Shown here one piece after another: positions 21,614-21,909 of a DNA stretch of 64,000 nt (within the stretch, counting starts at the first letter, position 1; each line of letters begins with the position of its first letter). A program made the translations under genes and the position numbers. This DNA is from Betaproteobacteria bacterium (GTDB taxonomy: Bacteria; Pseudomonadota; Gammaproteobacteria; Burkholderiales; SHXO01). The DNA is taken from contig SHXO01000002.1 of assembly GCA_009693245.1 (NCBI GenBank), positions 6,280 to 70,279 on the forward strand. Direction: 5' to 3'. Below the pieces are notes generated by a model that worked only from the letters and a program-made list of their open reading frames with translations, was not told where the DNA came from and made no database searches.

Positions 21614-21811
21614 GGCCAAGTAGCCCAGTTGGATGAGGCCGGACAAGCAAAAAGCCCTGCGGCTTGTTGCTTGCCTGCCGAATCCGAGCGCCATGCAGGG
21701 CGCGAGGCGGAAGAGCAGAGGACTGATAACTTGGCCGTGCATTTGGGCCAAGTTACGTCGTAGACTCACATTTCGCGAAACGCAATGTGATGTCGAAGAC
21801 AAAATCCTTGT
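21614..21811 (+). other. collinear fragments of the tRNA-Phe 5' part interleaved with hairpin inserts (tRNA-Phe pseudogene or att scar)
   Basis: 21614-21632 matches tRNA nt 1-19 (18 of 19). 21712-21726 matches nt 21-35 exactly. 21801-21811 matches nt 35-45 exactly. The inserts carry perfect hairpins, for example taacttggcc-N9-ggccaagtta at 21727-21755. No T-arm or 3' acceptor is present. Confidence 0.6.
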
Positions 21812-21833
21812 ACCTTGCTTTCGCAGCACCCGT

Positions 21834-21909
21834 GGCCAAGTAGCTCAGTTGGTAGAGCAGAGGACTGAAAATCCTTGTGTCGGTGGTTCGATTCCGCCCT
21901 TGGCCACCA
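21834..21909 (+). tRNA. tRNA-Phe (anticodon GAA)
   Basis: 76 nt with a 7-bp acceptor stem ggccaag/cttggcc and D-arm gctcagttggtagagc. The anticodon loop is ctGAAaa, the T-arm is ggtggttcgattccgcc and CCA is encoded. Confidence 0.95.

Follow-up and report, generated by a model that had tools for sequence, protein, structure and literature searches.

Genomic islands duplicate the 3' part of their tRNA gene downstream of the tRNA, and in E. coli tyrT 178-bp repeats with tRNA 3' fragments lie beside the gene. Miniature elements derived from IS200/IS605 carry subterminal hairpins and use a short fixed 5' target motif of 4–5 nt, and the group I introns of bacterial tRNA genes lie in the anticodon loop. 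With regard to palindromic repeats, our description of REPs, including a GTAG/CGTC tag located 5' of the palindrome, follows PMC3733652, and the Rickettsia palindromic elements (RPEs) are small palindromic repeats found inside functional genes, including RNA genes, and between genes (PMC3733652). Small palindromic repeats are a known kind of element, and the two-hairpin module described below is a variant of them. A limited literature search returned no description of the arrangement reported here, nor of a small palindromic element inside tRNA loops.

The window analyzed here is a 64,000-nt stretch of the genome of a Betaproteobacteria bacterium (assembly GCA_009693245.1, contig SHXO01000002.1, positions 6,280–70,279). 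In this window groEL (17986–19641) is followed by a gene for an MFS transporter (19842–21506; Pfam MFS matches) and then by tRNA-Phe (Table 1). We consider it likely that the stretch just before the intact tRNA-Phe gene (21614–21811) is a decayed, promoter-proximal tRNA-Phe copy colonized by a small REP/MITE-like element, and that the downstream copy is the one that works. A sequence-only reading of the window had described three tRNA-Phe segments in the correct order, two inserts and a short spacer before the intact gene; the segments with their match counts, the lengths of inserts and spacer and the limits of the gene were all verified, as was the lack of a T-arm or 3' end in the upstream copy. 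The core of fragment 1 is 21614–21632, and a repeat finder lengthened this match to 24 nt at 88% identity. Fragment 2 holds the 3' strand of the D-stem, the 5' strand of the anticodon stem and the loop bases C32–A35 (extended match 21709–21729, 19/21), and fragment 3 holds the 3' bases of the anticodon loop, the 3' strand of the anticodon stem and the start of the variable region. Each fragment pattern occurred in the window only at the fragment and in the intact gene, compared with 0.00–0.01 sites expected from dinucleotide shuffles of the window; the three collinear tRNA-Phe pieces are far beyond chance. Both ARAGORN and Rfam called the intact tRNA-Phe, which Rfam found alone here (gathering threshold, E <= 10) apart from a 16.6-bit match to YrlA that we regard as chance. 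A look-up of the tRNA 3' segment gave no second copy in the window.

Table 1. Features of the tRNA-Phe region and copies of the two-hairpin module in the window.
Feature	Position	Strand	Basis
Terminator-like hairpin and T-tract, end of MFS gene	21520..21556	+	read from sequence
Predicted -10 box TAGAAT of tRNA-Phe promoter (conserved GGCTAGAATGCGCGCCTTTCGCC)	21571..21576	+	five-locus alignment
Fragment 1: tRNA-Phe nt 1–19, 18/19, T12C, loose extension to nt 24	21614..21637	+	
Insert 1, D-loop, 79 nt	21633..21711	+	
Fragment 2: tRNA-Phe nt 21–35, 15/15	21712..21726	+	
Insert 2, two-hairpin repeat module, 74 nt, anticodon loop after G34A35	21727..21800	+	
Fragment 3: tRNA-Phe nt 35–45, 11/11	21801..21811	+	
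22-nt spacer between decayed copy and intact gene; equal in length and ending (CCGT) in L081	21812..21833	+	
Intact tRNA-Phe(GAA), encoded CCA	21834..21909	+	ARAGORN; Rfam RF00005, 71.6 bits
Second full-length module copy, gap-pgk spacer	383..452	-	nhmmer E = 8e-11; covariance model 74 bits
Third module copy, truncated P1, directly after glmS stop codon	1644..1726	-	nhmmer, covariance model

The position of fragment 1 relative to the promoter is informative. In relatives the hairpin that ends the MFS gene is likewise followed by TTTCGTTTT at the same position, and the GGCTAGAATGCGCGCCTTTCGCC block after this terminator was invariant across an alignment of five related loci; its TAGAAT would be the -10 box of the tRNA-Phe promoter. 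Exactly 37 nt separate TAGAAT from fragment 1, and the same 37-nt gap separates it from the tRNA start both in L082, which has a single intact gene, and in L086, which has an interrupted copy. Because this is where the tRNA starts in single-gene relatives, fragment 1 belongs to the promoter-proximal copy of a tRNA-Phe pair. It thus appears to be the 5' end of a decayed promoter-proximal copy, and the working tRNA-Phe would be the second copy, downstream of it. Transcription from the upstream promoter would take in the whole leader along with the tRNA. The fold predicted for leader plus tRNA (21610–21912) has the acceptor strand of fragment 1 paired to the intact tRNA's 3' acceptor strand, and if the region is one precursor transcript, the correct tRNA fold could face competition from the relic.

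On the other side of the intact gene, a short ORF on the minus strand (22280–22627), about 370 nt past tRNA-Phe, resembles the middle of tyrosine integrases (PHROG 1, E = 2.7e-8) and is probably a remnant of a genomic island; 21910–22860 held no other recognizable gene. At the same downstream position intact P4-type integrase genes are found in L083, L085 and L088, and a type I restriction-modification methylase gene (HsdM) in L082.

The layout is not peculiar to this genome, as several Burkholderiales lineages have it. L081 (MFS 95% identical) has fragments 2 and 3, an insert homologous to insert 2, the right part of insert 1 and the spacer given in Table 1, and lacks fragment 1 (nt 1–20). 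L086 (MFS 93% identical) has the promoter, intact nt 1–35, a 64-nt insert and then AAAATCCTTGTG, where its contig ends; it appears to show an earlier state of the structure. L082 (MFS 94%) and L085 have a simple single tRNA-Phe gene and no interrupted unit. In L083 and L088 (91%) we found a more decayed stretch, a different insert of about 110 nt between promoter box and tRNA-Phe (2060–2195 in both), which includes a decayed GGAAGAACATCTGTCTGA resembling fragment 2 and, 33 nt ahead of the tRNA, a second GCTAGAAT box. When metagenomes were scanned for the left junction, CTGA^TAAC (^ marking the boundary), it turned up in L090, L092 and L093, each time upstream of an intact tRNA-Phe. L092 has an MFS gene upstream (76% identical over 99 aa) and hemA-prfA-prmC downstream, with two tandem interrupted units followed by an intact tRNA-Phe and no integrase among these flanking core genes, and the upstream genes of L090 and L093 encode an RNase_T exonuclease and a TrmB-like protein, respectively. 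Past the intact tRNA-Phe of L092 (927–1094) lie a degenerate forward module end (..GTCGGAACT), tRNA nt 35–61, a complete reversed module and the tRNA 3' end GCCCTTGGCCACCA, which together make up a third, shattered tRNA-Phe copy with the element in its T-loop.

Each interrupted tRNA-Phe copy has an intact partner. In all 7 interrupted copies the T-arm and the acceptor 3' strand are absent, and the longest 3' match ends at about nt 53–54. T12C is common to the copies of the window, L090 and L093. Base 17 of the D-loop is lineage-specific and, in four of five lineages, the same in the interrupted copies and their own intact tRNA; since it matches within lineages, the fragments probably stay close to the intact gene through gene conversion. 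The spacers of L090 and L092 have ..CCGG(C)TGGTGG.. and AGCAA(A)GT in common, and these shared motifs, as well as an MFS identity of 76% between L092 and the window, suggest that the arrangement is old and inherited. In a protein-anchored GTDB scan of 80 loci, tRNA-Phe lay downstream of the MFS gene only in L005, where it was ordinary, and synteny is therefore shallow. The locus of Parvibium lacunae, the nearest named isolate, was not syntenic, scans of viral contigs gave nothing or chance coding matches, and in plasmid blastn the tRNA part was the sole match. Besides, relatives' assemblies break at the tRNA-Phe locus, with L086 and L087 ending there.

Insert 2 is a module that also occurs elsewhere. 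It consists of a first hairpin, P1 (21727–21755), and a long stem, P2 (21757–21800), with an inner hairpin (21766–21790); the hairpin of P1 and the inner one of P2 had both been pointed out beforehand and are present. The same module lies after G34A35 in 6 other interrupted tRNA-Phe copies from five metagenomic Burkholderiales loci. In these seven units the insert starts after CTGA (CTG in unit L092A) and is followed by AAAATCC (AATATCG in L090). We built a profile of the seven tRNA-Phe inserts and then a covariance model; insert 2 itself scored nhmmer E = 9e-15 and 81.4 bits with the covariance model. These searches detected the two further copies in the window listed in Table 1, next to genes identified as gap and pgk and, by its GlmS domains, glmS. 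A copy with truncated P1 likewise follows glmS in L097, and in L092 an inverted copy interrupts the T-loop of a 3' tRNA-Phe fragment that follows the intact gene. Beyond these, neither the window nor about 0.9 Mb of retrieved loci gave a significant copy, and about 0.7 Mb of other Burkholderiales loci (about 80 loci) gave none; the 64-kb window has three dispersed copies, and at this scope a high copy number was not seen.

The gap-pgk spacer provides a directly observed empty site. In L097 the flanks are identical and the 60-nt element is absent: the empty site reads CGGGA^GAA^GGGTGGGG and the occupied site in the window CGGGA^CAAC...GGAGCCACAA^GGGTGGGG, a 60-nt insertion with an ambiguous overlap of at most 3 nt. 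On this comparison the gap-pgk module is a presence/absence polymorphism of an insertion. The pair displayed neither a fixed-length nor a clear target duplication. Across the five distinct sites, the bases just left of the module are always GA (CTGA, GGGA and GCGA, plus GTGA and ATGA at stop codons), and the right flanks begin A/C-A-A. The module ends, CAACACGCC... and ...GGAGCCA, are not complementary, and terminal inverted repeats were not found. Near the right end of the 383–452 copy, at a distance of 19 nt, GCCGGTGGTCGATTCC (356–372) looks similar to the T-arm of tRNA-Phe (GTCGGTGGTTCGATTCC); since the adjacent bases are common to L097, this stretch is apparently native flank, and the likeness is perhaps chance.

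The sequence-only reading had also taken the arms TAACTTGGCC/GGCCAAGTTA in insert 2 for mimics of the tRNA acceptor-stem strands. This claim did not survive, as the pair is not tRNA-specific and essentially the same hairpin recurs after glmS (1660–1683, and in L097) and after gap (in L098). The likeness is at most a feature of a repeat subfamily; the identity to the acceptor stem spans 7 nt and may be chance. Two hairpins in tandem at 48722–48778 (AACAAGGGG..CCCCTTGTT) are similar to the module's P1 (covariance model E = 0.16) and may be terminators or single-hairpin relatives of the repeat.

Insert 1 is composed of a long hairpin (core arms 21644–21656/21661–21673) and a second hairpin (about 21685–21705), and its right part (21673–21707) is common to L081 only. 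Its two-hairpin layout and an ACAAGC..GCTTGT stem are reminiscent of the module; neither nhmmer nor the covariance model detected it as a member.

Insert 2 belongs to a dispersed repeat family, which is best read as being of the REP/BIME or miniature-transposon type. Like REP/BIME sequences and REPINs (RAYT, Y1 HUH), the module is a short non-coding intergenic hairpin repeat whose stems are kept by compensatory change. Similar to REP/BIME, its copies lie mostly downstream of genes and co-oriented with them, near stop codons and in small clusters, and have neither terminal inverted repeats nor target duplication. However, GTAG precedes P2 in 3 of 9 copies (window, L081 and L086), the others having GAAG, ACAG or GCAG, and CGTC or TGTC follows P2 in 5 of 9 aligned copies, so that the GTAG/CGTC tag is not family-wide here; moreover, CGTC of the module is located 3' of the hairpin, whereas in the published families it is 5'. 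The module is also a fixed pair of different hairpins with conserved linkers rather than a single palindrome or an inverted REP pair, and the 64 kb with its three known copies showed no RAYT gene. As for the IS200/IS605 miniature elements (palindrome-associated transposable elements), the module shares with them subterminal hairpins at each end, insertion directly 3' of a short fixed motif (..GA, five sites), and the lack of inverted terminal repeats and of a clear target duplication. In contrast to them, the motif here is 2–3 nt rather than 4–5 nt; no transposase for the module was identified in the window, where linked TnpA/TnpB were absent. RPEs are also small palindromic repeats within and between genes, but they belong to another lineage and differ in sequence, and their host genes stay functional, whereas here the host tRNA copy is dead.

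Several other kinds of element were considered and rejected. A DDE-type MITE would have terminal inverted repeats and a target duplication of fixed length, both of which are absent. Matching terminal sequence and a 5-bp duplication were absent for a Tn7-like end. As an integron attC site, the hairpin is too short and perfectly paired, and core sites fit only loosely. At glmS, a template/variable repeat pair of a DGR did not fit, as the differences are not adenine-specific and there is no reverse transcriptase. Homing spacers of CRISPR-transposons were discarded because such genes are absent nearby.

We further examined the fold of the module. In all tRNA-linked copies the predicted fold is a three-way junction closed by the anticodon stem and containing P1 (TAACA...TGTTA) and the long P2 (GGC..GAC(hairpin)GTC..GCC); the 102-nt stretch 21712–21813 has a fold z of -4.2. 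In a model-guided alignment of 11 copies with both hairpins in all, which leans towards the model and in which related sequences inflate the counts, 90.6% of cells were paired, compared with 20–47% in slid controls, and 12 of 23 pairs were changed on both sides. For four of five measures none of 500 shuffles reached the observed value, and for the fifth, further pair types, one did. A MAFFT alignment gave 88.3% paired. The covariation can also be read directly, for example at position 2 of the inner P2 hairpin, where A-U, C-G, G-C and U-A all occur. Six of 7 copies retain a complementary anticodon stem, and conservation is higher in the junction linkers than at the hairpin tips. This compensatory change in the hairpins fits recognition either as folded single-stranded DNA (HUH/Y1) or as folded RNA.

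The fold raises the question of whether selection maintains the interrupted copy as a structured 5' leader, or as a tRNA-like non-coding RNA, that is co-transcribed with tRNA-Phe and acts on its processing, stability or expression, with the three-way junction closed by the anticodon stem as the core that such an RNA would have. The covariation agrees with the fold, as do the z value, the complementarity of the anticodon stem and the conservation of linkers over tips, and the unit was found between the conserved promoter and the intact tRNA at every locus, always in sense, and was retained across 76% MFS identity while the spacers diverged. This persistence counts against the reading of a colonized dead copy and would also fit a selected leader RNA. 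However, the module with the same linkers is also found in the gap-pgk spacer, after glmS and once reversed; as these non-tRNA copies have the same structure and linkers, the constraint belongs to the element family and not to the tRNA-Phe locus. Besides, the tRNA-derived parts are variably lost or interrupted (L081 without nt 1–20, and the D-loop insert of the window), L082 and L085 do without the unit, and no Rfam family matched. We therefore regard a selected leader RNA as quite unlikely. The earlier suggestion of an unrecognized structured RNA stands in so far as covariation is present, and falls in so far as it implied an RNA specific to tRNA-Phe. Hammerhead, twister and other ribozymes were rejected on the lack of Rfam matches and, by eye, of their core motifs.

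Given the anticodon-loop site, one could also think of an intron (of group I or another type) within a second tRNA-Phe gene whose tRNA is still functional, and nt 1–35 are intact in L086. This has hardly any probability: the T-arm and acceptor 3' strand are missing from every copy, the insert (60–95 nt) is smaller than known group I introns, Rfam at E <= 10 gave no intron or ribozyme family, and the module also occurs outside tRNAs and inverted. A complete 3' exon being absent in 7 of 7 copies, a functional tRNA bearing an intron was ruled out.

The remaining explanation considers the fragments and inserts as scars, that is, fused attL/attR arms of tyrosine-integrase elements whose body was lost, possibly in several rounds. 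The locus resembles tRNA-targeting islands in target gene and breakpoints and in having, in relatives, integrases beside the same tRNA: tRNA-Phe is an island hot spot, with P4-type integrases directly 3' of it in the three relatives mentioned above and the minus-strand remnant in the window. The breakpoints fall in the anticodon loop and, in L092, in the T-loop, and these two loops are, according to what Williams reportedly set out in 2002, the classical integrase crossover sublocations. The order in L092 (intact tRNA, degenerate module, 3' fragment from nt 35/36) would also fit, and direct repeats of the gene 3' end lie on either side of the glmS and gap copies, in the manner of attL/attR identity segments. 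Unlike in such islands, however, the parts repeated here are 5' ones located upstream, the "element" is shorter than 100 nt and it has no associated recombinase; standard integration gives no product in which upstream 5' parts are joined straight to the module. The two units of L092 lie amid core genes (hemA, prfA, prmC) with no integrase, the covariance model found no module beside the intact integrases of L083, L085 and L088, which are on the 3' side, the gap-pgk copy is a clean 60-nt insertion in which the identity segment is not repeated, and hairpin covariation is unexpected for integrase arm sites. We consider integrase scars unlikely, and the proposal of integration and excision scars, as first put forward, fared less well on account of the 5' fragments, of L092 and of the side on which the integrases of relatives lie. 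The window likewise did not give the pattern of an att-site scar, as the tRNA 3' part is not repeated in it, the repeated parts are 5' and upstream, and the integrase remnant is on the other side. The E. coli tyrT repeats are similar to the locus in being tandem units with pieces of the adjacent tRNA, plausibly arising and being homogenized via unequal recombination or gene conversion, but they consist of downstream 3' fragments without an inserted hairpin element.

Of the options first listed for this region, a decayed tandem copy colonized by small hairpin elements is the one that the results support, through the non-tRNA copies, the empty site and the location of fragment 1 at the ancestral tRNA start. 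In this preferred reading, the order of events would be as follows. A small (about 60–95 nt) non-coding two-hairpin element would have entered the anticodon loop after G34A35, the interrupted copy would then have lost its T-arm and 3' end, and the lineage of the window and L081 would have gained another hairpin-rich insert as well, this one in the D-loop. The fragments probably kept their identity to the intact gene through gene conversion with the neighboring copy, and recombination between the direct repeats would give back the simple gene of L082 and L085. The element may have been mobilized as folded single-stranded DNA in an HUH/Y1-like manner (IS200/IS605 or RAYT-type), a resemblance based on its hairpin ends, its fixed left-flank motif and the absence of target duplication.

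The glmS and gap copies have a feature of their own. Past the glmS module a diverged 41-nt duplicate of the glmS 3' end (1610–1650) encodes ..KPLNVAKSLTVD*, and this layout of module plus 3'-end duplicate (1610–1726, minus strand) is conserved in L097 (2400–2560); in both, what seem to be degenerate pieces of a second module come after the duplicate. In L098, whose gap is 93% identical, the gap stop codon is followed by the TAACTTGGCC..GGCCAAGTTA hairpin, a 63-nt duplicate of the gap 3' end and pgk (5011–5176), and the first bases of that duplicate are complementary to 9 nt on the left side of the hairpin, CCATTCATT. The duplicates of 41 nt (glmS) and 63 nt (gap) start at GA^CAAG and GA^CAAT. 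In addition, a 9-bp hairpin spans the glmS stop codon (window 1683–1722, minus strand; L097 2418–2456), its arms being the coding end and the first downstream bases, and the two genomes differ in it by a compensatory change (GCGAAATCA/TGATTTCGC vs GCGAAATCG/CGATTTCGC). A simple-insertion model leaves the 41–63-nt gene-end duplicates beside the glmS and gap copies unexplained; as speculation, they could come from unequal exchange between an element end and a pseudo-site in the gene. A tentative and rather doubtful reading is that the module is a new kind of miniature site-specific element that homes to GA^NAA in highly conserved structured targets, insertion or recombination itself making the partial target duplicate and thereby leaving an intact gene copy; such targets may include the tRNA-Phe anticodon loop and T-loop and the 3' ends of glmS and gap. 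If true, this would explain both the intact partner of every interrupted copy and the gene-end duplicates.

Overall, the locus is an old, mildly unusual genomic relic and no novel type of gene. Annotators should treat the 220 bp before tRNA-Phe as a pseudogene plus a repeat, and not as a second gene, an intron or an att site. A small family of two-hairpin repeats with a consistent left-flank motif is also defined here for freshwater and soil Burkholderiales. If the link between module and duplicate is mechanistic, it would point to an undescribed way for miniature elements to enter essential genes with the host surviving.
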